In this document: positions 3,007 to 30,055 of the stretch, piece after piece
Layout: each line of letters starts with the position of its first letter
Position numbering within the stretch: position 1 is the stretch's first letter
Assembly: GCA_000002445.1 (NCBI GenBank)
Contig: CH464491.1
Coordinates: 544,001-608,000, forward strand
Reading direction: 5' to 3'
From: Trypanosoma brucei
Lineage: Eukaryota
DNA: 64,000 nucleotides
The notes under the pieces: model-generated
Databases searched by the model: none
Told to the model about the DNA's origin: nothing
What the model saw: the letters and a program-made list of their open reading frames with translations, nothing else
Position numbers and translations under genes: made by a program

Positions 3007-4671
3007 ATGTCCTTTTTCCAGTTGGATTGGGAATGTTCATATCAAGAGTATATGAAAATGATCTATCATCACGCAACGAACTATGTTCCGCCACGGGTTT
3101 CACAAGAGAGGCACCTCATCACTTGTAGGGAGCTGCTGAATGAAGCTCAGAGGGAATGCAAGGGAGGCAAGTATGATCTTTCCTTCTTTCACTACCTTCG
3201 GTGTGTGGAGATTCTCACTAAGGTGGGGATACCCTCTACATACAAAGATTCAATGGTTTTGAAGAAGCAGTGTATGGATGCCATTGAAGCCCTCATGAAT
3301 GGCGCTCTTAAAAATCACTATGAAAAAATGGTTGAAGAATTAAACTCGAAGAAGGAAGGAGTTGATGTTTTAAGTGTAGGGGATCCCTCTGTAGTTAATG
3401 TGAACAATGAGGAAGCTGAACATTTGAAGCGTAGGGAGGTGCTTCTGAAAAATGAGCGCGGTACTTTGGATAGTTGGAGGGGAGAGATAGGAGAAACGCG
3501 TATACCCTACAATCAAATCTATAATACCACTGTGGATTATCAGTATTGGAATCGTGATGTTGCAGCAACCGTGGCATCAGATGGTGTAGTTGTTCCGCCA
3601 CGATCCATACCGTGTGCTTCCCCTAACGCTTACTGCAAGTGGACATATAACTCTAGTTTTCAGGGTAAGTGGAACCCTAGACGGGGAATGGTTAATCTTG
3701 GTAATACTTGCTATTTGAATAGCGTCGTACAGACGCTTGTTTCTACACCATTGGGGGCTTATTTTCTGGGTGACAAGTATACGCTTGATGTCAGTACTGC
3801 TGGGAGGCAGACTTGTAGGCTGGTCAACTCTTTCACTTTCATTGTTCGAGAGTTGAACCGCAGGGACTGCGCTGCCCCTGTGAGTCCTTCACCATTTAAA
3901 AAAGCGATGGGAGAGGTTAATGAAGCGTTTTCTGGTTTTGGGCAACAGGATGCAAATGAGTTTCTGAGAGTCCTTCTTGAGGGGATACACGACGGGTTGA
4001 ATGATCGAAGAACGGTCAAAGCCGTTCCGAGTGACGCAGACACTATCGAATTCAGTGATGCGGAGTTGGCGAAACGCCACTGGGAGCAATACACGCAACA
4101 AAACAATTCTGTTGTCGTTGATAACTGTGCATTTCAAGAGCGGAGTTCTATTATGTGTTTAGTATGTCGAAGAATTAGTAGGTCTTTTACATGTTCGTTG
4201 GGAATCGACGTTCCCATTCCTGCCGGGACTGGGAACATTTGCCTGGAAGACTGCTTCAGACTATATTGCAAAGAAGAGGAGTTGGATCTTGATTCAGCGT
4301 ATCACTGCCCTTCGTGCAAGCAAAAGGTCAAAGTATCGAAACAGCTTTTGTTGTATTCACTACCGACCCTGTTGTTTGTAACGATCAAACGTTTTCGAAG
4401 CGATGGCGCTATATCGATGAAATTAAATGACCCCGTTTTCTTTCAGAAAAAGATTGACTTAAAACCCTTCTTGTGTTCGACAGAGAAAAACACCATATAC
4501 GATTTAGTCGGTGTGGTGAACCACAGTGGGAGCACGACCGGCGGCCACTACACTGCTGATTATTATGATAATCATTGTGGGTGGTCTTCAGCTAGTGATG
4601 AGCGAGTCTCTAGGGCGGACAAACCTGACTATCGACTTGTTTATATTCTGTGTTACGTACGTTCTGCTTAG
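3007..4671 (+). CDS. Ubiquitin carboxyl-terminal hydrolase (USP / peptidase C19 family)
   Basis: Cys-box GMVNLGNTCYLNSVVQTL and His-box GGHYTADYYD signatures of USP deubiquitinases. ORF-track start 3001 is GTG, so the start is moved to the first ATG at 3007. Confidence 0.85.
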   Translation: MSFFQLDWECSYQEYMKMIYHHATNYVPPRVSQERHLITCRELLNEAQRECKGGKYDLSFFHYLRCVEILTKVGIPSTYKDSMVLKKQCMDAIEALMNGALKNHYEKMVEELNSKKEGVDVLSVGDPSVVNVNNEEAEHLKRREVLLKNERGTLDSWRGEIGETRIPYNQIYNTTVDYQYWNRDVAATVASDGVVVPPRSIPCASPNAYCKWTYNSSFQGKWNPRRGMVNLGNTCYLNSVVQTLVSTPLGAYFLGDKYTLDVSTAGRQTCRLVNSFTFIVRELNRRDCAAPVSPSPFKKAMGEVNEAFSGFGQQDANEFLRVLLEGIHDGLNDRRTVKAVPSDADTIEFSDAELAKRHWEQYTQQNNSVVVDNCAFQERSSIMCLVCRRISRSFTCSLGIDVPIPAGTGNICLEDCFRLYCKEEELDLDSAYHCPSCKQKVKVSKQLLLYSLPTLLFVTIKRFRSDGAISMKLNDPVFFQKKIDLKPFLCSTEKNTIYDLVGVVNHSGSTTGGHYTADYYDNHCGWSSASDERVSRADKPDYRLVYILCYVRSA

Positions 4672-4928
4672 GAAGTTGCTTAGCGAGGGATGTACTCAAG
4701 GTGGAGTTGAATGAGCAGTAAAATACCGCTGGTAAAGGTTTAATTACCATCACATTTATCTACTTCCCTCTTTTGAGAGCATATGAAGCTGTAAATGCTA
4801 TTTTGTCTCTATAATTTATATTGTGGGTTTTGCCTCCTGACAGCAACAAACCTTATTGTTAATGATATGTTGGTGCTTGTTTGTGTGATATGCTCATTTC
4901 GTATAGGTGCTAGGCTGTTATTACTCTG

Positions 4929-6323
4929 ATGGGCTCTGAATGCTCAAGGCATTCGAACCAAACCGAGCTGCGGGATGAGCGATTTTGCAGCAAGCGTAGG
5001 CAGGTGTTAGATGCAACACTTGCGCAAGCTCCACGCCCACCATCCTTTGTAAATTTGTCGAATGACTATCGTTGTTGCTGTGGTGCAGTGGGACCAGGTG
5101 GACTTAGATTTGCAGAACCGCCCAATAGGGGCAGCACCACGGGTCCACCCCGCGATCACCGGCCTGGTATCACGGGGAACCGTCGGTCAGAAAGACCCGG
5201 TAATTTGGGGCAAGTGTCTTCCCTTTATCCGGCCGTGGAGCCACACAGGGGGTTACCCTCACGTGACCAGCCTAAATCCACTCTGTTCCCGCAGTCGTGT
5301 CCGAAGGCTTCCACATCAAAGGTCAATACTCATGTGCGTGCGCGATCTGAGCCCCACACACGCGGTGGCCGAAGAGCAGGGTCGAAAATATCAGTGGCAA
5401 ATGCCTCAGGGAGCAGATCGAAAAGGTCAAAACTGACGTCATATGTTGATGATAATGAAAACGTACAGGGGGTGCACGAATTTCGAAAGAAATTAATTTT
5501 TCTCTCTCTGGAGGAAGAAAAGGAGCGCTTGCAGATCTCAAACGAGAGATTAACTGGGTTCTGTAACATGGAAGATATTTTTGTGCGTTCCATGAAGGGC
5601 ACACCCCATTGCAGCGCCGAACTAAAGTTGTTTTCGTTGCAGGGGAGGAGGAGAGAATTCATACGGGAGCAGGAGCACAATGAATGGAGACAGCTTTTGT
5701 TTTCGGTTAACCAAACACTACTCAATAGTTCTTTGGACGGTAAAGCGAAGGGATTTGCTTACTCCCATCTAGATGAAAATTCACTGTATTGGCCGTCGCC
5801 AACTTCGGAACGCGGATGTATTAGACGACCCTTCACCGCAGCTGAGCTGAATCAACTGGCCAGATCAAACTCTGAAACGGATTTTTACGTATCCAGCGAC
5901 GGATTGAAGAAACCGACATCTCACGCTACTAAGATGTGTGCGTTGTGTGAAGTTGCTCTGAAGAATGTACTAAGTGAAGACATTATAGATATTGATAGAA
6001 TAAATAGAAAGATAGCGCGACAAATTTATCTGCTAAATGAAATTTCTTCTTATTGCAGCCCGACAGACTCTGGCTCTTCTGCCTGCAGCAAGGAACGGGT
6101 TGCAGGTATGTGTCCTTTAACTACCAACGATAATCTACAGTCGGTGGCGTGCCGTCCCCTTCGCTTACCGCCTCGTGCCTCCACAACCACATGCACATCG
6201 TACCCAGTGGGGCACTCATGTTGTGGGTCGGTAAGTTCCACATCAAAAGGGTTGCCGGACTATTTAAGAAAAGAGTGTAACTTCGCTACAAGAAAAAGAC
6301 TAGTATCGCTTCTACAAGAGTAA
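4929..6323 (+). CDS. Hypothetical protein with N-terminal MGSECS (possible N-myristoylation/palmitoylation motif)
   Basis: 464 aa ORF with an ATG start and an upstream polypyrimidine tract. No recognisable catalytic domain. Gly2/Ser6 plus Cys5 at the N-terminus. Confidence 0.6.
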   Translation: MGSECSRHSNQTELRDERFCSKRRQVLDATLAQAPRPPSFVNLSNDYRCCCGAVGPGGLRFAEPPNRGSTTGPPRDHRPGITGNRRSERPGNLGQVSSLYPAVEPHRGLPSRDQPKSTLFPQSCPKASTSKVNTHVRARSEPHTRGGRRAGSKISVANASGSRSKRSKLTSYVDDNENVQGVHEFRKKLIFLSLEEEKERLQISNERLTGFCNMEDIFVRSMKGTPHCSAELKLFSLQGRRREFIREQEHNEWRQLLFSVNQTLLNSSLDGKAKGFAYSHLDENSLYWPSPTSERGCIRRPFTAAELNQLARSNSETDFYVSSDGLKKPTSHATKMCALCEVALKNVLSEDIIDIDRINRKIARQIYLLNEISSYCSPTDSGSSACSKERVAGMCPLTTNDNLQSVACRPLRLPPRASTTTCTSYPVGHSCCGSVSSTSKGLPDYLRKECNFATRKRLVSLLQE

Positions 6324-6613
6324 GTTACTTCTCAATTGTCTTGTTCCAAATTTAACTTTCGTGGTGTTGTTATTGTACATTTCCCCTTTGTTATCGTGCT
6401 TCTTTTCGGATGTTGTCACGCTATCTTCCATTAATATTCCATGGACGGGGCACCTTAACATTAAGCATGGCTTTTTTCCCTTGAAAATTTTCTATGTTCG
6501 TTGATAACATCTTTTTCAGTCATTAAAATCGCTGTTGTGACAGTTTTATTGTGGTTTATCTTCTTCGTATCGCACATATATACCAAAGGCATCTGACTAG
6601 GCAAGCATCAAAC

Positions 6614-7282
6614 ATGAAGCGTACACGCAATGCTTTGTTGTCATCAGAACTACTATGCAAGGTTATGAAAATTACAGAAGAACCACGCGTTGTGAAAGAG
6701 CTGAGTGATATTTTACTCTTTCCCCGGGTTAAAATAAACTCTTTGCCCTTCGTTCCACCTCCCAAGTGGACTACAGAGCTCAATCGCAGACTGCAGAAGA
6801 GGTTTCCGGAACTTAGCCGGAAGCGACACATTTTATTCACACGTGCATTTATTCATCCTAGTTTTACCGCACCAGAGGCAGCTTCATCGACTATGAATGC
6901 ATCTATTGGGTTGGGCGAGTCCTTACTGCTTTCTGTTGGTGGGCGTTTAGTTGTCAGTATATTTGATGACCTGAGACGTGATGAAGTAATTTCGTTGGTT
7001 TCATTTCTATCCTCCGATGCAGCCCTCAGCCACCTTTTGCGTCACCACTGGGAGTTGGAAGATATGGTATTAACAGATGCATCAGTACAACTGTTCCAAC
7101 CAAAAGCAACGCCCTCTGCCTCTAACATTGTATCGTGGCTGCCAGATCAGAGGGGAAAACAGGTCCCTGATCAGTATTGTGCTGGAGCAGTAAAGGCAGT
7201 GATTGGAGCAGTGTTTTTAGATGGGGGCCTGTCGTTAGCCACGCAGTTCATCTTCCAACACGTTCTTGAGGCACTAGAATAG
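6614..7282 (+). CDS. RNase III-like domain protein (degenerate, probably non-catalytic)
   Basis: C-terminal GAVKAVIGAVFLDGGLSLATQFI resembles the RNase III domain motif AxxAxIGAIYLDxG. The ERLEFLGD catalytic signature is replaced by ESLLLSVGG. ORF-track start 6551 is GTG; the first ATG is at 6614. Confidence 0.55.
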   Translation: MKRTRNALLSSELLCKVMKITEEPRVVKELSDILLFPRVKINSLPFVPPPKWTTELNRRLQKRFPELSRKRHILFTRAFIHPSFTAPEAASSTMNASIGLGESLLLSVGGRLVVSIFDDLRRDEVISLVSFLSSDAALSHLLRHHWELEDMVLTDASVQLFQPKATPSASNIVSWLPDQRGKQVPDQYCAGAVKAVIGAVFLDGGLSLATQFIFQHVLEALE

Positions 7283-7427
7283 TGGTATACATTACGGTTA
7301 GTGCAACGCTGGGTTACTGTCTATTTTGTTCTCAAATATTTTTAAAGAAGAGTTTTCAATGAAGGAGTTGTTTTGCTTATTTACCTATTTCTCTTTTTAT
7401 TTGTTCAATTTTTCCTTTAGAGCTTCA

Positions 7428-8606
7428 ATGAACCACCCTGATGAACTTGAAGGGTCGGCGACCTCTGGGGTTCTCTGCCCACTGACAGCATATGAGGAGG
7501 TTCCCCCGACGAAAACAAGGAGCCAGATAATTAAGGAACAACTGTTAGATTTAGAAAATTACTCGTTCGAAATCCCTGACCGGCCGGAAGGTGATCCGTC
7601 AGGGAAATTGGCCTATCTGGACATGTGTGAACAGCTACACAAGGAGTCATTTATGAAGTTTCCTACCCACAGCGTCGCGAACAGTCTTTGCGAGGGCAAA
7701 GAATCATTGGACGTCAGTTTTTTTGCCCTTGGAAAGAAAGGAAGTGCTGCGTTGGCTGCCGCTCTGCGAGTTAATCTTACAATCAGAAAACTTTCCCTCT
7801 TGAGGAACCACATTACTCCTTCGGGTGCCATGGAGATTGCACGGGCGCTTTCCGAAACGAAGGTAGTCTCCGATCTTGACTTAAGTGAGAACTTGCTGGG
7901 GCTGACAGATGCAGATGATATCCAAGGGGGTGCCGTGGTAGCTGAGTTCCTTAAGCCAGGAAACGTTTTGAAGACGCTATCCCTCCGGGACAACAAGTTA
8001 AGTGACCAGCATGTCACTGAGTTTGCGGAGGCGGCAATCGACAACACTGAATTGCACTCTCTTGACCTGAGCTTCAACAGGATTGGTTACATTGGTGCCA
8101 TTGAATTAGCAAACATTCTTTCTAAGAACGCAGACCTTCAGGAAATAAATCTAGAGTGGAACCAATTTCAAACGATTGGTAGCCGCCATATACTTGCCGA
8201 AGGACTTCTTTTGAACAACACAATCAAGCGCTTCAACATGAGTTGGAATGGATTAGATGATGCTTGTGGGGTGCTTGTAGGTCGTATTATTAGTGAAAAT
8301 GATATTGAAGAGATTGTTGTCGCTCACAATAGAATTGGACCGGCAGGGGCGGAAGCTATCGCAAAGGGACTTCTTAATACATCTGCGCTAACCACACTAA
8401 TCCTGGACGACAATCCCATGCAAAACGAGGGTTGCGCTGCAATTCTTCGTGTCGTCGGGGAGGCAGCTACTCTTACGAACGTTAGCCTTCAGCAATGTCG
8501 ATGTGACTCCAGCGTTGTGCTAGAAGCCGATCGAGTGATGAAGGAGGTTCGCCCGGATTTGGATATCCGAATATCTGAAGGTTGCTGTGCCAAGGTAGTG
8601 ATGTAA
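7428..8606 (+). CDS. Leucine-rich repeat protein (ribonuclease-inhibitor-like LRR)
   Basis: Repeated ~28-residue LxxLxLxxNxIgxxGaxxLaxxL units such as LHSLDLSFNRIGYIGAIELANIL and LTTLILDDNPMQNEGCAAI. The track start (7326) is TTG. The polypyrimidine tract 7381-7420 followed by AG favours the ATG at 7428; an alternative ATG lies at 7359. Confidence 0.7.
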   Translation: MNHPDELEGSATSGVLCPLTAYEEVPPTKTRSQIIKEQLLDLENYSFEIPDRPEGDPSGKLAYLDMCEQLHKESFMKFPTHSVANSLCEGKESLDVSFFALGKKGSAALAAALRVNLTIRKLSLLRNHITPSGAMEIARALSETKVVSDLDLSENLLGLTDADDIQGGAVVAEFLKPGNVLKTLSLRDNKLSDQHVTEFAEAAIDNTELHSLDLSFNRIGYIGAIELANILSKNADLQEINLEWNQFQTIGSRHILAEGLLLNNTIKRFNMSWNGLDDACGVLVGRIISENDIEEIVVAHNRIGPAGAEAIAKGLLNTSALTTLILDDNPMQNEGCAAILRVVGEAATLTNVSLQQCRCDSSVVLEADRVMKEVRPDLDIRISEGCCAKVVM

Positions 8607-8853
8607 ATAATCATATGTGGAGGCATTGGCGGAGTGTACTCGCCTGTGGTTAAATGGAGAGGTTACGCTGGCAGAGATTTCTCTTTTTTTTTTTTTTGAA
8701 AGCTTAGTGTGTGTAGGGATGCCTATCGATGATGCACACCCTTCTTACTCCACAGTGACCCTCTTTATTGTATTTGTTGCTAAGCAGCTTTCGTTTCCCC
8801 GAGTTCTTCTAATTCCACCCATTAGGCAGATTTGAAAGGAGCTGACCTCGGAA

Positions 8854-9678
8854 ATGGTCGATCGAATTGAAGCAACACTTAATCGTCTCATAGCATTCGG
8901 ACCAGGTACGGCGTCTTATACAGATGATGCTGCCTTTTTGCAAAATGTTGCCTCTGCCATGGAGGTGGCAGGTGAGATTCCCGTTCTGACGGAAGCGTGC
9001 ATGTCACTTTCTGTAGATCTACTGGAGAACTCGTCACCACAGTCTGCTGCTACTCACGCTGTGTTGACACTTCTCGCATGCTGTTGTATGCGGGATGACA
9101 ACAGGGAACTAGCATCACGTTTCGGTATTTTTTCGTTATGTGTTCTTCTTCTTCGGAGCAGTGAGTTGTTGTGCAAGGACACTCTGTTGACTATTTTTGA
9201 CCTGATAGGGACCCTCTGCATGAGCAGTGCTAGCACGCGACAGATGATGCGCCCATGTATTCCTTATGTCCTCGGGGTGATGAGAACTCATCCCGATTGC
9301 TTTCAGTTGTGCTTCAGCGGGGCCGTCGTGATCGGCACGTTGGTCATGCTGGATGCTGCGAACGCGGAATTGGCTGCGGAAAACGACTGTGTTCAGATTC
9401 TTCTCACGGCTTTTATGCGTGGACATGACAAACGAAAAGAGTTGCTGAATCGCAGACGCACATCTTATTCCCTACGTTGTCAAAGAGAGGAAGATGAGTC
9501 ACGACGTCTATGCGACAACGTCATACGCTGGACGGAGGATGCATTGCAAAAACTTGTTCTGGCTCCATCTCCCGTGATTGATGCTAAACTAGAGGCTGCT
9601 GACTTTGGAAATTATGGGGACAGGGTAGAGGTTGACGAGCTCATGTGGAAGTTGAAGTTTGGGCGAGGAAAGATGTGA
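8854..9678 (+). CDS. Hypothetical protein (helical/ARM-like composition)
   Basis: 274 aa ORF with an ATG start, in the cluster orientation, with trypanosomatid codon usage. Confidence 0.5.
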   Translation: MVDRIEATLNRLIAFGPGTASYTDDAAFLQNVASAMEVAGEIPVLTEACMSLSVDLLENSSPQSAATHAVLTLLACCCMRDDNRELASRFGIFSLCVLLLRSSELLCKDTLLTIFDLIGTLCMSSASTRQMMRPCIPYVLGVMRTHPDCFQLCFSGAVVIGTLVMLDAANAELAAENDCVQILLTAFMRGHDKRKELLNRRRTSYSLRCQREEDESRRLCDNVIRWTEDALQKLVLAPSPVIDAKLEAADFGNYGDRVEVDELMWKLKFGRGKM

Positions 9679-9975
9679 AGTTTCAGCGATGCTTCAACTG
9701 TTCGTGTGTTGTGAACATGGTCACTGCTATCATTCGTGCGCATTCGCATTGTATGTGTTCGCCGTGATCAGTTTTTCGAGAATTTGTGTGAGCTGAGGGG
9801 TAGCTGTTGATGTTATCGACGTGAAGGAGATAAGATCTGTTTCTAGTGTTCATACCTTCTTTTTCATTACACTGTTGTTAATTCTTCTGCACAAAGAAGG
9901 AAGAGCAATAGGGTAATAACAATAACACTTTCCGTTGCGGGAAGAAGCAAAGGTAAGAAAGTTTACACCAGCACA

Positions 9976-11529
9976 ATGAGCAGCGCGGTAGATTCCCTGC
10001 TTGTACGCCTCAAGATTCCGGACCTAATCCCAAAGTTTAGGGAGATGAACGTTGATCGCATCATCAGCCTGCGCAAACTAAGTGAGGAGGAGCTTCGGAC
10101 TGCCGTTCCCGATGATGACCAGCGAAACCGAATAATCGAAGCCATTAAGAACCGTGGGAGTAGTGAGAAGAGGACACAGGCCCCGGCTGCAAGCATAAAT
10201 CCACCTCGTTCTACGGATGATGGAGGTCGCGGTGGCATGTCATACCCTCGTGGAGCACCCCGCGGTGGTGGTCCAGTGCGAGGACGAGGTCGCGGCGGGA
10301 CTGGCAGCGCAGGCGAGGGTGGATTTCACGGTAGTGGCAGCAATAACGCTAACATGTTTCCTTCTCGCCAGCGAGTGTGCAACCACTTTCTTAATGGTGA
10401 CTGCAGGTACGGTGACTCCTGCCGTTATAGCCACAACAAGGCACTGTGCCAGGAGGCGGCGGAAAGTGTGCCTCGACGCAACCACGATGCGACATCGTTG
10501 TCTGAGGATTTCAGTGAAACGTGTATTATTCCTACACACCGCATAAAGTATCTACTTGCGAACAGGGCTGATCGCCTTCGGAGTATACACAGCAAGAATC
10601 GCACACACAACAAGTCATTTCAACACATTGACCCCACCATCGAAAAATTCGAGCTCGTAATTTACGGGGCCGACCAGCAATCTGTTCAGGAGAGCAAGAA
10701 AATGATTCTTGCTTGTATTGGTGTGACACGTGAGGAGGAGCAGAAGAATCGTGTGCAGTACACAATGAACGAGTTGAGCAGTAATCAACGCGCGGCTAAA
10801 TTTTTGGCAGCATGCAATATGAAGAACGAGGGGACTGTTCGTGAACTGTCGGAGGCATCACTGAGGAATATCATTTCGTTCTTCCGCTTTGAGAAGCAGC
10901 AGGATATACGTCACTTTTGGGTGAACACCAACAGCGAACACAGTAAGCTGGATATCATCGCCAACATAGTTGCCCAGCTACAGGGAGTACAAGCCATCAT
11001 GTTCTGTGACCAGAAGCGTGTTGTGGATATGAGCAAAGTGGCATCTAAAATCACTCGCTATTTCAACGGTGTCTCCCCCCTGTTTCTCCACCGTGCCATC
11101 CCGAAGGAGGAGCGCATGAAGATGCTCCAAACTTTCAAAGACGGTAAACCTAATGAAAATGGTATTCGAGAACGTCTGCTTGTTACTAATGAAGACTATG
11201 CCAAACTGGCTCGGAAAACAATTGTTCCGTATGTTAATCTTGTCATTAACTACTCAGTCCCACGCTCTGAAGAATACTACCTACTTCAATCTCTTGTGGC
11301 GGGGCGCAGTGACACGGTAGGAGTTTCCATTGTGTGTGTTTTCCCGCACGAGCAGTCCCTATTTCAAGAATTGCAGCGGAACATCCCGTTTGAAGAGCTT
11401 GAGGAGGAAGGGAATTTCAAGGATGCCGCGGTGAAGCTGGTGTACGACACTGTGGACGAACCATTAACAGGTGAGGACGCCGACCCCCCAAGCAACTGGC
11501 ATGAGCAACTGAAGCCCAAGACCCTGTGA
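9976..11529 (+). CDS. ZC3H41: CCCH zinc-finger / RGG-box protein with orphan DEAD-box-helicase C-terminal domain (ZC3H41-like)
   Basis: RGG/RG repeat block (GGRGGMSYPRGAPRGGGPVRGRGRGG) and a CCCH finger CNHFLNGDCRYGDSCRYSH. The C-terminal region (IMFCDQKRVV...RLLVTNEDYAKLARKTIVPYVNLVINYSVPRSEEYYLL) matches the helicase-C (HELICc) motif set. No Walker A/DEAD N-domain is present. Confidence 0.8.
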   Translation: MSSAVDSLLVRLKIPDLIPKFREMNVDRIISLRKLSEEELRTAVPDDDQRNRIIEAIKNRGSSEKRTQAPAASINPPRSTDDGGRGGMSYPRGAPRGGGPVRGRGRGGTGSAGEGGFHGSGSNNANMFPSRQRVCNHFLNGDCRYGDSCRYSHNKALCQEAAESVPRRNHDATSLSEDFSETCIIPTHRIKYLLANRADRLRSIHSKNRTHNKSFQHIDPTIEKFELVIYGADQQSVQESKKMILACIGVTREEEQKNRVQYTMNELSSNQRAAKFLAACNMKNEGTVRELSEASLRNIISFFRFEKQQDIRHFWVNTNSEHSKLDIIANIVAQLQGVQAIMFCDQKRVVDMSKVASKITRYFNGVSPLFLHRAIPKEERMKMLQTFKDGKPNENGIRERLLVTNEDYAKLARKTIVPYVNLVINYSVPRSEEYYLLQSLVAGRSDTVGVSIVCVFPHEQSLFQELQRNIPFEELEEEGNFKDAAVKLVYDTVDEPLTGEDADPPSNWHEQLKPKTL

Positions 11530-12187
11530 AAAGAGTGACGTCGTATGGTCTCTTCTAATCGCAGTTGCCATTTCGTTCTGTCCCAATTGTCCACACCATG
11601 CACTCACCTCCTCTAACTTTAATGCGTGGGTTTCACCCCCTTCTGGGTGACTACGCGGTTGTTGCCACTCCAAAGAGAAAAAAGAGAAGAATAAAAAAGT
11701 GTCTGCATCTTTCTTTCGTGTGTCTTCTGCTTCGGTTCGATAGCCAATCTCATTTTGACAGTCCTCCAGAACACTTGGTTCTGCCGAGTTTGTGAAGTGG
11801 TGATGATGGCTTCGGAGACGTGTGGCAAGGGGAAATGGAGGGAGACATGTGGTATCTTTTCTTCTTTTTGAGTAACCCCTCTTTCAGTTATTTTCCCTTA
11901 CGCATTGACGGTGCTCCTTCTAGCGATGGGGATGTTCTGCCGTGCCGTGTATATCGGGGCACTGTAGAGGAGGGCTGGGTGGCGATTTTGTTGAAGAACG
12001 TTTTATGATTGTGGGGAGGTGTGCTTGTTTACGCGTGTGTGCAGTGGGGGAAACGGAAAGGAAGGGAAATGCTTAGAGCCTCCACCAGGGACATTCAGCC
12101 TCTTTATTATTTACTATAACCACAGAAACAAGGGAGTTACGATAAAATCAACGCGGAGAAAAAATTTATATTGGTGTATCTGCACAC

Positions 12188-12211
12188 ATATATATATATA
12201 TATATATATAT
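12188..12211. repeat. (TA)n microsatellite
   Basis: atatatatatatatatatatatat within the ORF-free gap. Confidence 0.9.
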
Positions 12212-13588
12212 GCACCCTGAAAAGAATGAAAGAAAATTAATTAAATAGCAAGAAGGAAGGAATGAAGGTCATCACTGTCGTATAATTGTTTATACGTGGG
12301 TGCGAGGGGCGCTTCAGGGGAAGGAAGGGAAGAAAAATACACGAACATGTGAGACGGTAGTTGACGCAATAAGGCAAGAAGGTGAAGCACATTGGAAACT
12401 ACAGCGAGAGGTCATGCGGCTGGTGCTCGTATATACGGGACGGGGAAGGGAAAGAAGTGCGTATGTTTCCTTAGGTGTCGTGCCATGGAAACTTGTGGAG
12501 CAGAAGGAAAGAAGTATAAGGGAGGGGGGAGGAACTGTTATCAAGCGTAACGAAAGGATTATCGGAGGTAACTGAAGGTATGAGGTAGATTGAAGCCCAC
12601 AAACGAGCTTACTGAGCAGAGAGGAATCAAGTGGAGTAGGAAAGGAAGACGGACATGTATTATTCAGATAAATCCGAGGGGCTCGGTGTGGGATGCGTTG
12701 TGCTGGGACGAGCAAGAGATTTAGGTGGCTCGAACTTAGTGTTGACAAGCGAAGGCAGCACGTAATCTCGTGCGTGTGTGTGTTATGCGGTACAGGGGGG
12801 AAGGCATGTATAGGAAAACTCTCTAGTCCACTTGAAGAGGAGACGGTTAACAGAGTACGAGGGTGTTCCGCAGATGGTGGTGGCAGCAATACCCGAAAAA
12901 ACTTTACACGTATGAATCTGCCGCGGCTGGTGTCTTTGGGGAATTGAACACACGTCTCCTTCGTGTTCTCTGCCACTCATTCATCTATGCAGGCACGGGT
13001 AATCGGGGGGAAGGTGTGCTTCGCTCTGCAAGCCGTGATTTTTTCTTCCACTTCTTGCTAATTACTTCTTTCATTGCTGTTTTCGTTGTTTTAAGCCCGA
13101 CATTTCCTCCCTCCTGGATCCGAAGAGAAAAAAAAATTCCCCAGTAAATGCGGGTCCGAGCAGCGGAGCTTCCTGCCTTCCCTGTGAGTAAATGGCGAGG
13201 TGGTCGTACACGCGGAGATGGAACTAGAAAGTGGGTGTGACGAGAAAGGGAATGTTATAGCGGGATGCTGTGAGTTTTACATGCGCAAGGAAATGAGCTG
13301 AATGACGACCTTGCGAATCAGCAAACAGAAACGGAAGGCAGCGAGTGAGGATTGAAGTGAACTCCTGTTTGGCTGTTGTTTGCGTGTGGTTAATGTACGA
13401 GGGCCCCTTCCTTTTTTTTTAAACATCTGTTGAGGGTTCCGCTGCTGTTGCCGATTGCTTTTCCTTTCTTTGCCTCCAGCTCACCACTTCCGAGGCAGTT
13501 CTTTTGGTGTCAGACCCTTCCCGCTCAGTGGCCCCATCTCCGTAGCTCACTGCAGTACTCGTTTGCACGCGTTGCTGCGGTTGATCTC

Positions 13589-23605: not shown

Positions 23606-24034
23606 GTCCGTGAGCGCTTGTTTCGAGTCGTGAATAAGAAGATGCTTTTTGGCCGTGGTCTGGTCACCACTGGCATTGCTCGCCTTTGCAAAAGCACAAA
23701 CTGGGTCTTTTTCTTAACTCGATTCTGGGCTGCACCGTTCTGCTTCCCGTTTTGTTTCTTTTAACCCATTTTTTTTGTTTCCACCCTTCTCATATCTAGG
23801 TGATAATTGTGCTTTGCCACGTGAAACTAGGAACATTTTTTTTGCCGCTGGAAGGTTGGTTTCCATAGCGACGGCGATTACTAGAGGGTTGTTGTCGTCT
23901 GGCAGGTATATATAAATAAAAAAAAAATATATATATACACTGGTTAAGTGTGCTCCACAGGGTGTCTGAAGAATTTATTACATTTTTAAATTTGCTCGGT
24001 TTGTGTGTGCGTGTGATACTTGCCCTCCGCTCGT

Positions 24035-26290
24035 ATGAAGCTGAGGGCTGACTCCCGTGGGGGTGGGGAGCAGGATATCAGGGCCAGCTTCGGCCACTCT
24101 ACCCCACGTGACACTGGTGAGAGTCCATCTATTCAACCCGTGGAAGGCCCGATCCCCCTAAATTTCCAATACGACCCGAAAGTCACATCATTAGAGGGAG
24201 CGCTGCTCTTTGTTGGCCGCACCTCCTCTGCGAACGTGAATAGTGTCAACCAAAAGCATCTTCACGGTAACTCCGGTGTTGCAATCCCGAATTCACCGGA
24301 GCTGGTTGGAGGAAACCAGCCGCTTGCGTCCGCTCGTTCATCGGTGGCTGACAATTCTGATCAAAGCAGCGGTAAGAAAAAGAGTGCCGTCGGTACGGGA
24401 TCTATAGGTGGCCGTCACCACGATCCAAACGCACCAGCAGCGAAAATCATAGTTAACGAGACGCAGGGGAGAACGTTGAATAAACCAAAGAGTGCCGCTG
24501 CCGACATCGTGAACGAGACTCCCCACGCTGAGGGCACTGGTGTGAAGAGTGCTTTTTGGGCTGTAGCGAAAAATGTAAGTGATAGAACTCCACTGAGCGG
24601 TCAGTCAAAGCCCCCACCTCGAAAAAATAGCAACGACGGCAGCCCAACCCCGGACCATGCGGGTGACGAGCCTATAGACGTGCGGGCGTGCAACTTTAAG
24701 TTCAAAATCATCCGAGAATTGGGTGGTGGAGGCTTTGGAAAGGTGTATCAGGCAATACTGGGTGACGGTAGGTTTGTAGCGGTTAAGAAGATGAAGATAA
24801 CATCCCACGATAAGGTGATCGACAGAGAGGTCCGCGTGCTGAGCACGCTTCCGCCGCACAAACACTGTGTCCGTTACCTTGGCTCGAAGAGGAGCAGTAA
24901 TCACTATTACATTTTCATGGAATACGTCAGTGGGGGTAGTATCCGTTACATTCGTAAAAGTGCTGGGGTGTTTGAGGAACCAGTGATGCGGCGCTGTGTG
25001 AAGATGGTTTTAGAGGGTCTTCAACACATTCACAGACACGACATCGTTCACCGCGATATCAAAGGGGAAAATGTTCTGCTTGACGAGAAAGGTTGCGTAA
25101 AAATTGTTGATTTCGGCGCATGCAAGGTTTTGAATAGCGGCCACAATACTGTGGGTAGTGTTGGCACACCGTATTGGATGTCCCCGGAGGTCTGCCGTGG
25201 GGAAGCGGCTACGGAGAAATCAGACGTATGGGGTGTGGGGTGCCTCTGTCTTGAGATGACAAATGAGTCGGGCATACCGTGGGAGTTCCATTCGACTGCC
25301 AACAATACGCAAGCTGTTCTCTATTCCATCGCGGCAGCAAAGAACCCTCCCAAAATCCCTCAACATCTTTCCCCAGCCGCTCGCGACTTCATTGCTTGCA
25401 CTCTGAGGGTCGACCCGAAGGATCGCCCTACTGTGGATAAGTTGTTGCAGCATCCCTTCTTTTCGCAAAGCTATTCCGCTGCGCAACCTGTTGAACGTGA
25501 AGCGGTGATGTCGAGGGTGGAGAGCTTCGACTTCGTCAACACTATTTCAACTCTTTCTCAACCGGGAGATGCAGCAAGTACCGGCAGCAAACCACCTGTC
25601 GTGAACATCGGACCCGTAATGATTAGCACAGGTTGTAAGACTGTGGCGCCGAGTAAAGACAAGGAGAAATCTCAGTCGCCGACCTATCAACTCAAGGCAG
25701 CAAGCAGCGACGACGATGATGATTACTGCAGGGTGCGTAATGTTATTAGACCTCAGGGAAATCTTGAACGGTATCCCCCGCCAGGTACCCCCGGAGATGA
25801 AGGTATCATCGGGAAGCGCAAGAAATCTGTTATTGCGACCCCCTCTCGCGTGGGTAAAGATGAGGTTAAGGAGATGCTAGAGGTGACCCCGGCACCACAA
25901 GCACGTGCGACTGGAGTGGGGCCCCCTGCTGATGTTCGTGTGTCGCCCCTTCCCAATCCAAGCAGCAGTAGCCCGGTGAGGGTGGTGAGGGCTCAGCCGC
26001 CTCCACGGCAGAGGCGAAGCACCGAAGCGTCTAATCCTTCTTCAACACGTGTAAGTTCTTCCTTAACTTCTGGAAAACCTGCCGGTGACCCCCCTGTGAC
26101 GAATTCGCTTGCCGAAGGAACAGCTAAGCGGAAAAAGACCAATGAGTCTGGCAAGTCGGCATCCGAACCCGGGCACAACGACGGCCGCCCAAGTAAGGAT
26201 AATCCTGGGCGCTCAAATAGTTCTGCGTGGTGGCGGCCCAAACAGGGATCTGACACCAACAAATCGGTGATCAAGTGGTTGATCAAATAA
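24035..26290 (+). CDS. Serine/threonine protein kinase (STE-like)
   Basis: Gly-loop LGGGGFGKVYQA followed by VAVKKM, the catalytic loop HRDIKGENVLL, DFG, and the GTPYWMSPEV activation segment/APE motif. Track start is TTG; the first ATG is at 24035. Confidence 0.9.
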   Translation: MKLRADSRGGGEQDIRASFGHSTPRDTGESPSIQPVEGPIPLNFQYDPKVTSLEGALLFVGRTSSANVNSVNQKHLHGNSGVAIPNSPELVGGNQPLASARSSVADNSDQSSGKKKSAVGTGSIGGRHHDPNAPAAKIIVNETQGRTLNKPKSAAADIVNETPHAEGTGVKSAFWAVAKNVSDRTPLSGQSKPPPRKNSNDGSPTPDHAGDEPIDVRACNFKFKIIRELGGGGFGKVYQAILGDGRFVAVKKMKITSHDKVIDREVRVLSTLPPHKHCVRYLGSKRSSNHYYIFMEYVSGGSIRYIRKSAGVFEEPVMRRCVKMVLEGLQHIHRHDIVHRDIKGENVLLDEKGCVKIVDFGACKVLNSGHNTVGSVGTPYWMSPEVCRGEAATEKSDVWGVGCLCLEMTNESGIPWEFHSTANNTQAVLYSIAAAKNPPKIPQHLSPAARDFIACTLRVDPKDRPTVDKLLQHPFFSQSYSAAQPVEREAVMSRVESFDFVNTISTLSQPGDAASTGSKPPVVNIGPVMISTGCKTVAPSKDKEKSQSPTYQLKAASSDDDDDYCRVRNVIRPQGNLERYPPPGTPGDEGIIGKRKKSVIATPSRVGKDEVKEMLEVTPAPQARATGVGPPADVRVSPLPNPSSSSPVRVVRAQPPPRQRRSTEASNPSSTRVSSSLTSGKPAGDPPVTNSLAEGTAKRKKTNESGKSASEPGHNDGRPSKDNPGRSNSSAWWRPKQGSDTNKSVIKWLIK

Positions 26291-26652: not shown

Positions 26653-27015
26653 GTGTTCATGCAGGCTTTTAATATATGTTTGTAGTGATGGTATATTCTA
26701 TGTTCTTTAGTACATATACGGTGGTTAGTGCTAACTATACGTCCAAAAGCAGGCGTATTTTTCTCCCTACCCTGTTTTCTTTTCTTTTTCTTGCTCGTGG
26801 CGGTGAAGACATTGTGTTATTCCCCCTGCAACCTCTCAGGTAGTAGTTGCAGCGATGCCACCACCACCTTTGCCAAGCTGATACGGCGGTTCATTCATCG
26901 GAACAAAAAAGACTGAAAAAAGGGCAAGTTCATTTGGTGTCTGATGGAACTTGTTGATAATTATGGTTAACCATCACTCATTGCCGATGCCACATATCTT
27001 TTTTTAAGATTCAAT

Positions 27016-27060
27016 TCCTTCTCTTTCTTCTCTTTCTAAACTATTCTGTGCGAACTGCAG
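27016..27060 (+). promoter_or_regulatory. Polypyrimidine tract plus AG acceptor immediately upstream of P0 copy 1
   Basis: cttctctttcttctctttctaaactattctgtgcgaactgcag ends ~22 nt before the ATG, implying a very short 5'UTR, as is common for ribosomal protein mRNAs. Confidence 0.55.
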
Positions 27061-27081
27061 GCTCCGTTGTAACAAACAGTT

Positions 27082-28056
27082 ATGCCATCCGTTTCCCAGG
27101 AGAAACGTGACTATGAGGATCGCCTCAACGGCTGCCTCACGAAGTACAGCCGTGTGCTCTTCTGCCTGATGGACAATGTTCGCTCGCAGCAGGTGCACGG
27201 TGTACGCCGTGATCTCCGCGGTAAGGGTGAGCTGGTGATGGGAAAGAAGACGTTGCAGAAGAAGATCGTGGAGAAGCGCGCTGAGGGCAACAAGGCCACA
27301 GATGCTGATAAGCTGTTCCACCAGGTTTGCACCGATAAGCAGCTTCTGTGTGGCAACACATCGATGATATTCACGAACAGCGAAGTGTCTGATATCACCA
27401 GCGTGTTGGACAGCCACCGTGTTCAGGCGCCTGCGCGTGTTGGTGCCATTGCCCCATGTGATGTTATTGTGCCCGCCGGTAACACGGGTATGGAGCCGAA
27501 GGCAACGGCGTTCTTCCAAGCGTTGAACATCGCGACGAAGATTTCCAAGGGTACTGTGGAGATTGTGAGCGACAAGAAGGTACTGAGCACTGGTGACAAG
27601 GTGGATAACTCCACGGCGACGCTGCTGCAGAAGCTCGACATCTCACCTTTCTATTACCAGGTCGAGGTGCAATCCGTGTGGGACCGCGGTGTGCTGTTTA
27701 CCCGTGAAGATCTCTCCGTCACCGATGCGGTTGTGGAGAAGTACCTCCTCGAAGGAATCAGCAACATCAGCGCTATGTCACTGGGTGCTGGTATCCCAAC
27801 TGCCGCTACACTGCCGCACATGATTGTCGACGCCTTCAAGACTCTTCTCGGCGCCTCCGTTGCCACGAATTACGAGTTTGAGGAATACGACGGAAAGAAC
27901 CTGCGCACAGCCGCCTTGGAGGGTAAACTCGGTGGTGGCGAAGCTGCTGCCCCCGCCGCTGCCGCTGCTGCCGCCGCCCCCGCCGCCGCTCCCGCTGCCG
28001 CCGCAGCTGAGGAGGAGGAGGATGATGATGACTTTGGCATGGGTGCTCTCTTCTAG
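27082..28056 (+). CDS. RPLP0: 60S acidic ribosomal protein P0 (copy 1)
   Basis: 324 aa with the uL10/P0 N-terminal domain, an Ala/Pro-rich hinge and the conserved P-protein C-terminus [15 protein letters not shown]. Stop codon is TAG. Confidence 0.95.
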
Positions 28057-28313
28057 TGATTTGAATGGAGTCTTCACTTATTTTTCTTATTTTTCATTTT
28101 CTCGTTGCTATGCGTCCATAGTTAATTGAATGTTTTGGTTTCATTCGTTTGTTGCAGACAGCCAAACCAACAGAAACGTTTGTGAACCAGTTTTTCGTAT
28201 TTGAAACGTTCTATTTTTCTTTTTCTTCTGTTGTTCTCCTCCCATCATAATCGCAAAATTTAAATTCCGTCTGAGCCGGAGAGAGCCGGATTGACCTACT
28301 ATAAAACGTAGTT

Positions 28314-29288
28314 ATGCCATCCGTTTCCCAGGAGAAACGTGACTATGAGGATCGCCTCAACGGCTGCCTCACGAAGTACAGCCGTGTGCTCTTCTGCCTG
28401 ATGGACAATGTTCGCTCGCAGCAGGTGCACGGTGTACGCCGTGATCTCCGCGGTAAGGGTGAGCTGGTGATGGGAAAGAAGACGTTGCAGAAGAAGATCG
28501 TGGAGAAGCGCGCTGAGGGCAACAAGGCCACAGATGCTGATAAGCTGTTCCACCAGGTTTGCACCGATAAGCAGCTTCTGTGTGGCAACACATCGATGAT
28601 ATTCACGAACAGCGAAGTGTCTGATATCACCAGCGTGTTGGACAGCCACCGTGTTCAGGCGCCTGCGCGTGTTGGTGCCATTGCCCCATGTGATGTTATT
28701 GTGCCCGCCGGTAACACGGGTATGGAGCCGAAGGCAACGGCGTTCTTCCAAGCGTTGAACATCGCGACGAAGATTTCCAAGGGTACTGTGGAGATTGTGA
28801 GCGACAAGAAGGTACTGAGCACTGGTGACAAGGTGGATAACTCCACGGCGACGCTGCTGCAGAAGCTCGACATCTCACCTTTCTATTACCAGGTCGAGGT
28901 GCAATCCGTGTGGGACCGCGGTGTGCTGTTTACCCGTGAAGATCTCTCCGTCACCGATGCGGTTGTGGAGAAGTACCTCCTCGAAGGAATCAGCAACATC
29001 AGCGCTATGTCACTGGGTGCTGGTATCCCAACTGCCGCTACACTGCCGCACATGATTGTCGACGCCTTCAAGACTCTTCTCGGCGCCTCCGTTGCCACGA
29101 ATTACGAGTTTGAGGAATACGACGGAAAGAACCTGCGCACAGCCGCCTTGGAGGGTAAACTCGGTGGTGGCGAAGCTGCTGCCCCCGCCGCTGCCGCTGC
29201 TGCCGCCGCCCCCGCCGCCGCTCCCGCTGCCGCCGCAGCTGAGGAGGAGGAGGATGATGATGACTTTGGCATGGGTGCTCTCTTCTAA
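28314..29288 (+). CDS. RPLP0: 60S acidic ribosomal protein P0 (copy 2, identical CDS)
   Basis: Its translation is identical to copy 1. All overlapping spurious ORFs in the other frames are also identical, which implies nucleotide identity. Stop codon is TAA. Confidence 0.95.
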
Positions 29289-29479
29289 GCACGATGTTTT
29301 ACCTGATGGTCTCCGGCATCCATTCTTTTTTACTTTGTTCTTTTTTTTTTTGCCTTGGTGGTGATCAATACCTTGGTAGACTGAAATGTTCTGCAGTGTT
29401 GTTGCACCTGTTCGTGGTTTAGCGATGGTTAACCACTAGTTGGTGTTTTTGTGCGTGTGTTGAAACCTATTGACAGGCC

Positions 29480-29570
29480 TCTCTCTTCCGTTTACTTCAC
29501 TTTTCTTTTTTTGCTAACAACTTCCAACCCCCTATCGACCCCCAACAACTACTATATTTTTAAACTTAAG
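29480..29570 (+). promoter_or_regulatory. Polypyrimidine tract between P0 copy 2 and the downstream gene
   Basis: A long C/T-rich run followed by AG dinucleotides, positioned to direct polyadenylation of P0 copy 2 and SL trans-splicing of the 29651 gene. Confidence 0.5.
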
Positions 29571-29650
29571 TATGTTCGTGTGTGTGGTAAACGGAAGGAA
29601 CTGACATCCGTTTGAACTACCCCTGCACCTTTGAAAGGCTCTGTTCCACA

Positions 29651-30055
29651 ATGGTGCGCTCGCTTGTTGTGTTGCTGACTTATGATGAACCAGAATGTGG
29701 TGGTGCAGCCGACGCACTTGTTGTTCACCTTCAACGGGACTGCGCAGCACTCGCGGATAGATGTCAGTTATCGGCTCGGCCAATATCTATTCTCCAGAAT
29801 TCTTCCCACCGTGACGCACTGTACAGGACACTGCAGGACCTTATTCAAGTGAAACCGCAAGATATTTACGCTATCAGTTTTTTAAAAGACAACAACCCTG
29901 ATGAATACCGCAAAATCCGAGAACTTTGCAACGGTGTCAAGCCACGACGTATCAAGCACCAGATACTTACACACCTCGCGAACTACAATGATGTGGGGCT
30001 CATTATAAGAAACCTTGTGCGGCTAGTGTTGGATGAGATGTCCCGTGACGTATGA
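29651..30055 (+). CDS. Hypothetical small protein
   Basis: Track start is TTG; the first ATG is at 29651. A long polypyrimidine tract lies at 29480-29570 upstream. Confidence 0.4.
   Translation: MVRSLVVLLTYDEPECGGAADALVVHLQRDCAALADRCQLSARPISILQNSSHRDALYRTLQDLIQVKPQDIYAISFLKDNNPDEYRKIRELCNGVKPRRIKHQILTHLANYNDVGLIIRNLVRLVLDEMSRDV

Follow-up and report, generated by a model that had tools for sequence, protein, structure and literature searches.

A tandem pair of genes in a 64,000-nt stretch of Trypanosoma brucei DNA (hereafter the window) raises the question of how two coding sequences (CDSs) can be the same to the base when the sequences on either side of them are unrelated, and of what places the limit between the identical and the unrelated parts so close to the start and stop codons.

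The P0 gene pair and its identical block

The two open reading frames (324 codons each; Table 1) encode a protein with the Pfam domains Ribosomal_L10 (PF00466; 46.7 bits, cut-off 22.8), RL10P_insert (PF17777; 83.6 bits, cut-off 29.1) and Ribosomal_60s (PF00428; 55.9 bits, cut-off 28.1). At the end of both copies, an Ala/Pro-rich hinge leads into an acidic stretch and then into a hydrophobic C-terminal factor-binding motif; in P-stalk proteins, this motif has a role in factor binding. The protein is 100% identical to XP_828289.1 and XP_828290.1, adjacent annotated proteins of T. brucei brucei TREU927, and the pair corresponds to two annotated genes for the 60S acidic ribosomal protein P0 (uL10) on chromosome 11 of this strain. 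It shares 99% identity with the P0 protein of T. b. gambiense DAL972 (the best cluster representative) and 82–90% with the P0 proteins of other Trypanosoma species.

The genes of the window form a one-strand array, which is typical of a polycistronic unit. The neighbours of the pair, a protein kinase gene upstream and a conserved 134-aa ORF downstream, served as synteny anchors; the latter has no Pfam match, and its N-terminus aligns with those of its relatives at the same position. The GC content at third codon positions (GC3) is 0.675 in P0, the highest of the local genes, versus 0.47–0.60 in the neighbours, and the spacers have 36–43% GC. The high GC3 matches a highly expressed gene, and biased conversion could also contribute to it.

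Table 1. Features of the P0 locus, with positions counted from the first nucleotide of the window.
Feature	Position	Strand	Basis
Upstream neighbour, protein kinase ORF (synteny anchor)	24020..26290	+	Pfam Pkinase, E=2.6e-64
Polypyrimidine tract of copy A, putative trans-splicing signal	27015..27037	+	23-nt C/T run
First AG (27059-60) and alpha flank, predicted 5'UTR of copy A, about 21 nt	27059..27081	+	Position of the AG; UTR start predicted
Homogenised block, copy A	27078..28055	+	978 nt, 100% identical to 28310-29287
P0 (uL10) gene, copy A	27082..28056	+	324 aa, stop TAG; Pfam and protein identity
Inter-copy spacer, 257 nt: 3'UTR of copy A and 5'UTR of copy B (predicted limits)	28057..28313	+	Sequence
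Homogenised block, copy B	28310..29287	+	Identical to the copy A block
P0 (uL10) gene, copy B	28314..29288	+	324 aa, stop TAA; Pfam and protein identity
Downstream spacer: 3'UTR of copy B and splice signals of the next gene	29289..29650	+	Tracts 29338-51, 29478-89, 29500-12
Downstream neighbour, conserved 134-aa ORF (synteny anchor)	29651..30055	+	Conserved position

A base-by-base comparison at an offset of 1232 nt returned a single unbroken run of identity, composed of AGTT (the 4 nt before the ATG), the 972 nt of the 324 sense codons and the TA of the stop codon; an exact match of 978 nt cannot be due to chance. The third base of the stop codon differs between the copies, and the two translations are the same. 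At the same offset, the flanks share 24–29% identity over 50–258 nt, which is the random level, and a blastn search with a word size of 7, using the CDSs with their flanks, detected no flank similarity at E<=1e-3. No other repeat of 60 nt or more is present within the window. The earlier note on this DNA, made from its letters, had described two copies identical from 4 nt before the ATG to the second base of the stop codon, with unrelated flanks on both sides and a differing third stop base. Pairwise comparison, which revealed no substitution in the sense codons, agrees with this description, and only the size first given for the identical run, 975 bp, has to be corrected.

All assemblies considered here are haploid consensus sequences, in which repeats may come out too uniform or allelic differences may be wrongly phased. 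Since identity in such a consensus is uncheckable without reads, we used the independent assemblies of T. b. gambiense DAL972 and T. b. equiperdum as comparison. They present the same block boundaries, and their two copies differ from each other at just 2–4 positions, one of which is the third base of the stop codon.

Age of the pair and concerted evolution of its copies

The orthologous locus was compared in 11 other genomes: within Trypanosoma, those of T. b. gambiense, T. b. equiperdum, T. vivax, T. theileri, T. melophagium, T. cruzi and T. grayi, and beyond this genus, those of Leishmania donovani/infantum (three sequences), Leptomonas pyrrhocoris, Angomonas deanei and an environmental trypanosomatid (contig L014). 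The set does not extend to T. congolense, the outgroup nearest to T. brucei. A tandem P0 pair is present in all 11 of them, flanked by the kinase gene and by a gene encoding 134–145 aa wherever the contig permits. The Pkinase gene adjoins the pair on its 5' side in T. b. gambiense, T. vivax, T. theileri, T. grayi, T. melophagium, L. donovani/infantum and Angomonas, and the 134–145-aa gene is located 3' of the pair in T. b. gambiense, T. vivax, T. theileri, T. melophagium, T. cruzi, Leishmania and the environmental contig. At the edge of the T. cruzi locus, a candidate third P0 copy with a 323-aa product was rejected, as its translation corresponds to an unrelated Q/P-rich protein.

The 5' flanks were typed by ungapped comparison of their last 24–30 nt, anchored at the ATG, and fall into two types in Trypanosoma. 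The alpha flank (AG followed by GCTTCAttGTgAAAaACAGcT and the ATG) precedes copy A in T. brucei, T. cruzi and T. grayi and both copies in T. vivax, with 14–21 identities out of 24 within the group. The beta flank (AG followed by AAACCGGG...AAG...TTTTAcc and the ATG) precedes copy B in T. cruzi and T. grayi and both copies in T. theileri and T. melophagium (13–22 out of 24 within the group), and comparisons of alpha with beta flanks stay at chance level (3–8 out of 24). The copy A flank of T. brucei agrees with that of T. cruzi copy A at 20 of the 30 positions before the ATG, versus 4 of 30 in a control comparison of the same two species made on the 30 nt before the 134-aa neighbour gene. It also shares 16/24 positions with T. 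grayi copy A and 15/24 with both T. vivax copies, versus 3–8/24 with the beta types. The 5' flank of T. brucei copy B is a clean fit to neither type (10–11/24 with alpha, 5–7/24 with beta).

In Leishmaniinae, the copy A flanks of L. donovani and of the environmental contig agree at 17 of 24 positions, and the copy B flanks have a GATAGC..GGCTA motif in common. For longer flanks (120–250 nt), local-alignment z-scores between distant species were mostly noise; close species scored, as did a few other pairs, e.g., the upstream regions of T. brucei and T. grayi (z=5.2) and the spacers of T. cruzi and T. grayi (z=5.5).

The conserved two-copy synteny, together with 5' flanks that are specific to each position, makes the duplication older than the speciations compared. 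Judged by these characters, it is ancient, at least as old as the ancestor that Trypanosoma, Leishmaniinae and Strigomonadinae have in common and older than the split of the Trypanosoma and Leishmania lineages, and we conclude from the flank types that the ancestor already carried two copies bearing different flanks. A recent duplication in the T. brucei lineage, or a retro-insertion of the exact CDS, with copies identical because they are young, would agree with the 100% identity and with the abrupt loss of similarity at both ends, but it is scarcely credible when the pair has the same neighbours in every trypanosomatid examined, when position-specific flank types are common to T. brucei, T. 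cruzi and T. grayi, and when the UTRs, spliced leader and poly(A) that an mRNA copy would bring are not seen in the sequence.

Divergence at synonymous sites (pS) is 0–0.009 between the two copies of one genome, versus 0.28–0.64 between species, with a value of 0.30 for the close relatives T. theileri and T. melophagium. The three genomes of the T. brucei group (TREU927, DAL972 and T. b. equiperdum) reveal how the differences are distributed. Strain-specific states at CDS positions 438, 471 and 801, as well as a one-codon indel at 899–901, are shared by the two copies of each strain, the changes at 438 and 471 being silent. Positions 405, 621, 901 and 942 are singletons, each found in one copy of one strain, and no coding site separates copy A from copy B across the three genomes. 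The copies are stably told apart by their third stop base (G in A, A in B) and by their flanks: the 5' edge lies at -4 in three of three genomes, and each spacer is 97.5–99.5% identical to its counterpart at the same position in the other strains.

Purifying selection and codon bias, acting without any recombination between the copies, could be put forward for a gene such as P0, which is essential and highly expressed and whose GC3 (see above) points to strong codon preference. This is highly improbable as the sole cause of the identity: synonymous sites that are identical within each genome differ by 28–64% between species, and the silent changes at 438 and 471 and the codon indel are found in both copies of a strain. 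Silent sites that vary between species and yet change jointly in both copies exclude, in our view, selection alone as well as a young duplication. These comparisons strongly support the view that the two copies evolve in concert, with gene conversion that would be confined to the coding block in T. brucei.

Exact identity still rests on consensus sequences, and it could in principle be an assembly artefact, the pooled reads of two truly different copies having yielded one consensus CDS twice. The repeat does disturb assemblies, and the risk of collapse raised by the earlier note proved real at orthologous loci: the T. grayi contig breaks off 80 nt into copy B, one T. cruzi assembly has 1841 N in place of copy A and the P0 genes of the Angomonas draft are found on contigs of 1.5–1.9 kb. 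Such an artefact is nevertheless very unlikely to account for the pattern, since DAL972 and T. b. equiperdum resolve 1–3 CDS differences with the same boundaries, which indicates that assemblers can separate the copies, and since at least 10 independent assemblies obtained with different technologies present the same near-identity, leaving room for a handful of hidden differences at most.

Edges of the block and the mechanism of homogenisation

The earlier note had proposed a gene conversion strictly bounded by the CDS. Conversion is supported by the pS contrast, by synteny and by the changes common to both copies, and the T. brucei edges agree with the proposed boundary, but the rule is not general, as the blocks of other species end elsewhere. 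Counted from the ATG on one side and from the end of the stop codon on the other, the block extends from -4 to -1 in the T. brucei group, from -1 to +4 in T. cruzi (where the CDSs differ at two positions, 16 and 960, both close to the edges), from -2 to 0 in Angomonas, from -4 to +19 in the environmental contig, from -8 to +9 in L. donovani, from -33 to +28 in T. vivax, from -92 to +12 in T. theileri and from -142 to +56, at 97% identity, in T. melophagium; in Leptomonas pyrrhocoris, it starts at -1 and ends 4 nt inside the CDS. Because these limits vary by species, the edge is set by the end of homology, and the CDS, which is not a mechanistic barrier, is only an approximate marker of it. In T. 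brucei, the edge is now formed by the last shared bases. The presence of alpha flanks at both copies in T. vivax, and of beta flanks at both copies in T. theileri and T. melophagium, indicates that conversion sometimes overran the 5' edge, in either direction.

We propose that recurrent gene conversion between the two copies of the same chromosome keeps the CDSs identical, through homologous-recombination repair using the neighbour as template. A new mutation arising in a single copy would be lost again or else passed on to the other. Homology is a requirement of strand exchange and heteroduplex formation; the flanks diverged long ago, and conversion tracts would halt at the first unrelated base. 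The result would be a self-maintaining sharp edge, located in T. brucei at -4 on the 5' side and at base two of the stop codon on the 3' side. Base three of this codon (G or A) would be just outside of the convertible block, so that the TAG/TAA difference could persist. Homology-dependent repair, with tracts that would be unable to enter unrelated sequence, is the simplest mechanism in the light of general knowledge on recombination. A cDNA-mediated conversion was also considered as the cause of a CDS-limited block and rejected, since an mRNA template would bring UTRs.

The conversion events themselves are deduced from sequence. If conversion needs a minimum of flanking homology, silent divergence is predicted in the outermost tens of bases of the block, whereas identity in T. 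brucei reaches the last base; the two T. cruzi differences, by their position, are consistent with such an edge effect.

Homogenisation could also proceed by repeated unequal crossing-over, the locus passing through one, two and three copies, instead of by non-reciprocal conversion. Direct repeats 1.2 kb apart are a suitable substrate, an exchange within the CDS would keep the outer flanks and the spacer, as seen here, and unequal sister-chromatid exchange followed by restoration of the copy number would homogenise the pair equally well, leaving the same data as conversion. We consider this route unlikely, since every genome examined has exactly two copies, none having one or three, and since the 5' overruns of T. 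vivax and T. theileri replaced tens of bases only, which fits short conversion tracts better. Taken together, the sequence comparisons indicate that the tandem P0 pair is very probably an ancient duplication homogenised by recurrent gene conversion with homology-limited edges, the recombination mechanism being the deduced part of this reading.

Separate untranslated regions and comparison with known gene pairs

In kinetoplastids, the splice signal is arranged as a polypyrimidine tract followed by the next AG (PMC2212663). Upstream of copy A, the first AG after the tract coincides with the exact start of the conserved alpha block. In the inter-copy spacer, tracts are present at 28214–28229 and 28234–28243 and AGs at 28274–28285, which predicts a 5'UTR of about 28–38 nt for copy B. 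This spacer has 98.8% identity with its counterpart in DAL972 and T. b. equiperdum and shows no relationship to the remaining flanks. As it measures only 257 nt as a whole, the 3'UTR of copy A must be very short. Each copy encodes the same protein on an mRNA whose 3'UTR and short 5'UTR are particular to that copy, the limits of these UTRs being predicted ones. On the 3' side, a CTCCGG motif about 20 nt after the stop codon is common to copy B of T. brucei, T. theileri and T. melophagium.

A copy-specific regulation driven by the UTRs is plausible by analogy with Leishmania ribosomal protein pairs, and given the conserved 5' flanks. One may go further and suppose that the pair was anciently sub-functionalised in expression, with UTRs retained by position that would serve two post-transcriptional programmes, e.g., stage-specific or growth-dependent ones, while conversion would keep the protein the same and selection would spare the UTR difference; we put this forward as a tentative and somewhat doubtful possibility. 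The better conservation of the alpha and beta flanks, compared with synonymous sites or with the flank of the neighbour gene (20/30 versus 4/30), points in this direction, and the positional retention of the 5'UTR and 3'UTR may date to before the split of T. brucei and T. cruzi. One of the 5' types is gone from T. vivax and from T. theileri and T. melophagium, which shows that the 5' part, at least, is dispensable. No P0 entry was found in the supplements of an expression-array study of T. brucei (PMC2771046).

The identity of the two genes has practical consequences. Reads, probes, RNAi triggers and peptides cannot separate them, the short UTRs alone can, and short-read assemblies are interrupted or left with gaps at the repeat. 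Concerted evolution limited by homology is seen here in very clean form, with edges that are sharp to the base pair and kept across the parasite family. With two copies at a spacing of 1.2 kb, the locus could be a compact model for the rate, tract length and edge behaviour of conversion in trypanosomes, and a possible test bed on which to ask whether dosage or separate regulation explains the retention of duplicated ribosomal protein genes.

The P0 genes of Leishmania infantum (LiP0) were reportedly described as a tandem pair by Soto, Requena and Alonso in 1993 (in Mol Biochem Parasitol); a literature search of open-access scope retrieved no description of the T. brucei or Leishmania P0 pair, just vaccine or unrelated papers. 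The LiP0 locus is orthologous to the one studied here, and the CDSs of L. donovani/infantum are likewise 100% identical, with similarity ending at the limits given above. In Leishmania, the spacer is about 1.39 kb long and both stop codons are TAA, whereas the T. brucei spacer has 257 nt; the Leishmania flank types, common within Leishmaniinae, show no clear alignment to the alpha and beta types of Trypanosoma.

Pairs of ribosomal protein genes, tandem or dispersed, whose CDSs are identical and whose UTRs diverge are a recognised feature of trypanosomatids (PMC3637525; bioRxiv 10.1101/2023.09.15.557908). In L. major, this is the case for RPS16 (LmjF.26.0880/0890) and RPL23 (LmjF.35.3790/3800), in each of which one member exceeds the other in transcript or protein abundance (bioRxiv 10.1101/2023.09.15.557908; PMC3637525). 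These are likewise tandem paralogues with identical CDSs and unrelated UTRs, but they concern other genes in another genus, and their differential expression has been demonstrated.

The concerted evolution of T. brucei tandem arrays was surveyed by Jackson (2007; PMC1855330), who found that paralogues cluster within species, proposed gene conversion and noted that flank heterogeneity limits it. This article does not include P0, and the term 'ribosomal protein' has no occurrence in it. In the arrays of that survey, non-coding sequences were usually as similar as the CDSs or more so, the histone arrays alone having more variable non-coding sequences (PMC1855330); the P0 pair is the extreme opposite, with identical CDSs and unalignable flanks.

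A similar design in T. brucei itself is that of the VSP1 pair (Tb11.02.4910/Tb11.02.4930), a tandem of genes with near-identical CDSs and divergent 3'UTRs, reported to be reciprocally regulated (PMC2771046). The P0 pair follows the same scheme of identical CDSs and divergent 3'UTRs with a different protein, measured regulation being a feature of the VSP1 pair. The P0 pair shows no new mechanism; it is a clean textbook case, in genes already annotated, of a pattern that is well known in these parasites.

The Ala/Pro hinge and the P0 repeat in assemblies

In both T. brucei copies, an imperfect GCC/GCT repeat encodes the Ala/Pro hinge of the ribosomal stalk protein P0; the hinge varies in length by one codon among T. 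brucei strains (proteins of 324 aa vs 325 aa). In copy B of T. b. gambiense DAL972, the hinge carries an Ala-to-Thr change. The P0 repeat is also the point where assemblies break, as seen in T. grayi, T. cruzi and Angomonas (see table).

Positions of the P0 features discussed, in the T. brucei window or in the contig named
Feature	Sequence	Positions
GCC/GCT repeat of the hinge	T. brucei window	27940-28010 and 29172-29242
Alpha flank before copy A	T. brucei window	27059-27081
Copy B 5' flank	T. brucei window	28260-28313
Contig stops 80 nt inside copy B	T. grayi (L010)	contig end
Copy A replaced by 1841 N	T. cruzi MKQG01002518 (L004)	3893-6001
P0 found on 1.5-1.9 kb contigs	Angomonas draft (L018/L019)	
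P0 copy A	T. vivax SOPI01000099.1 (L002)	4712-5779
P0 pair and flanking genes	Leptomonas pyrrhocoris LGTL01000007.1 (L012)	4726-12971
P0 copy 2	Leptomonas pyrrhocoris (L012)	7779-8780
Copy-B flank with AGGCT-ATTG	L. donovani/infantum (L007)	5970-6000
Copy-B flank with AGGCT-ATTG	environmental trypanosomatid contig (L014)	2750-2787

Atypical copies in T. vivax and Leptomonas pyrrhocoris

In T. vivax, a single C is missing from copy A at CDS position 852/853 (CTTGG-GGTGG), and the gene is therefore called as a frameshifted product of 355 aa that has no acidic tail; this copy may be an incipient pseudogene or the result of an assembly error. Copy 2 of Leptomonas pyrrhocoris diverges from copy 1 at 4 bases ahead of the stop, and the protein terminates in ...GMGGLLLSKRNCAV rather than ...GMGGLF, which changes the conserved C-terminal factor-binding motif. 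This altered end may stem from a sequencing error or from erosion where the homology block ends. In the same contig, the kinase gene and the 144-aa gene that flank the pair lie on the strand opposite to both P0 genes; the pair is therefore inverted, in this assembly, inside an otherwise one-strand cluster. No N runs lie near the pair, and the inversion is either real or a misassembly.

Proximal 5' flanks of the two copies

Two types of proximal 5' flank, alpha before copy A and beta before copy B, are distinguished in T. cruzi and T. grayi. The T. brucei copy B flank matches neither type cleanly: its distal part (GAGCCGGAGAGAGCCGGATTGACC) resembles AGAAACCGGG, the motif of the beta type, with AGCCGG present twice, and its last ~24 nt are weakly alpha-like (10-11/24). 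An old conversion overrun that was only partial may have left this flank as a chimera. In Leishmaniinae, the flank of copy B (GATAGCCAAGGCTATTGCAAG) includes an AGGCT-ATTG motif similar to the Trypanosoma alpha flank (AGGCTTCATTGTG), a resemblance in sequence that could be due to chance or to a different order of the flanks in the two lineages.
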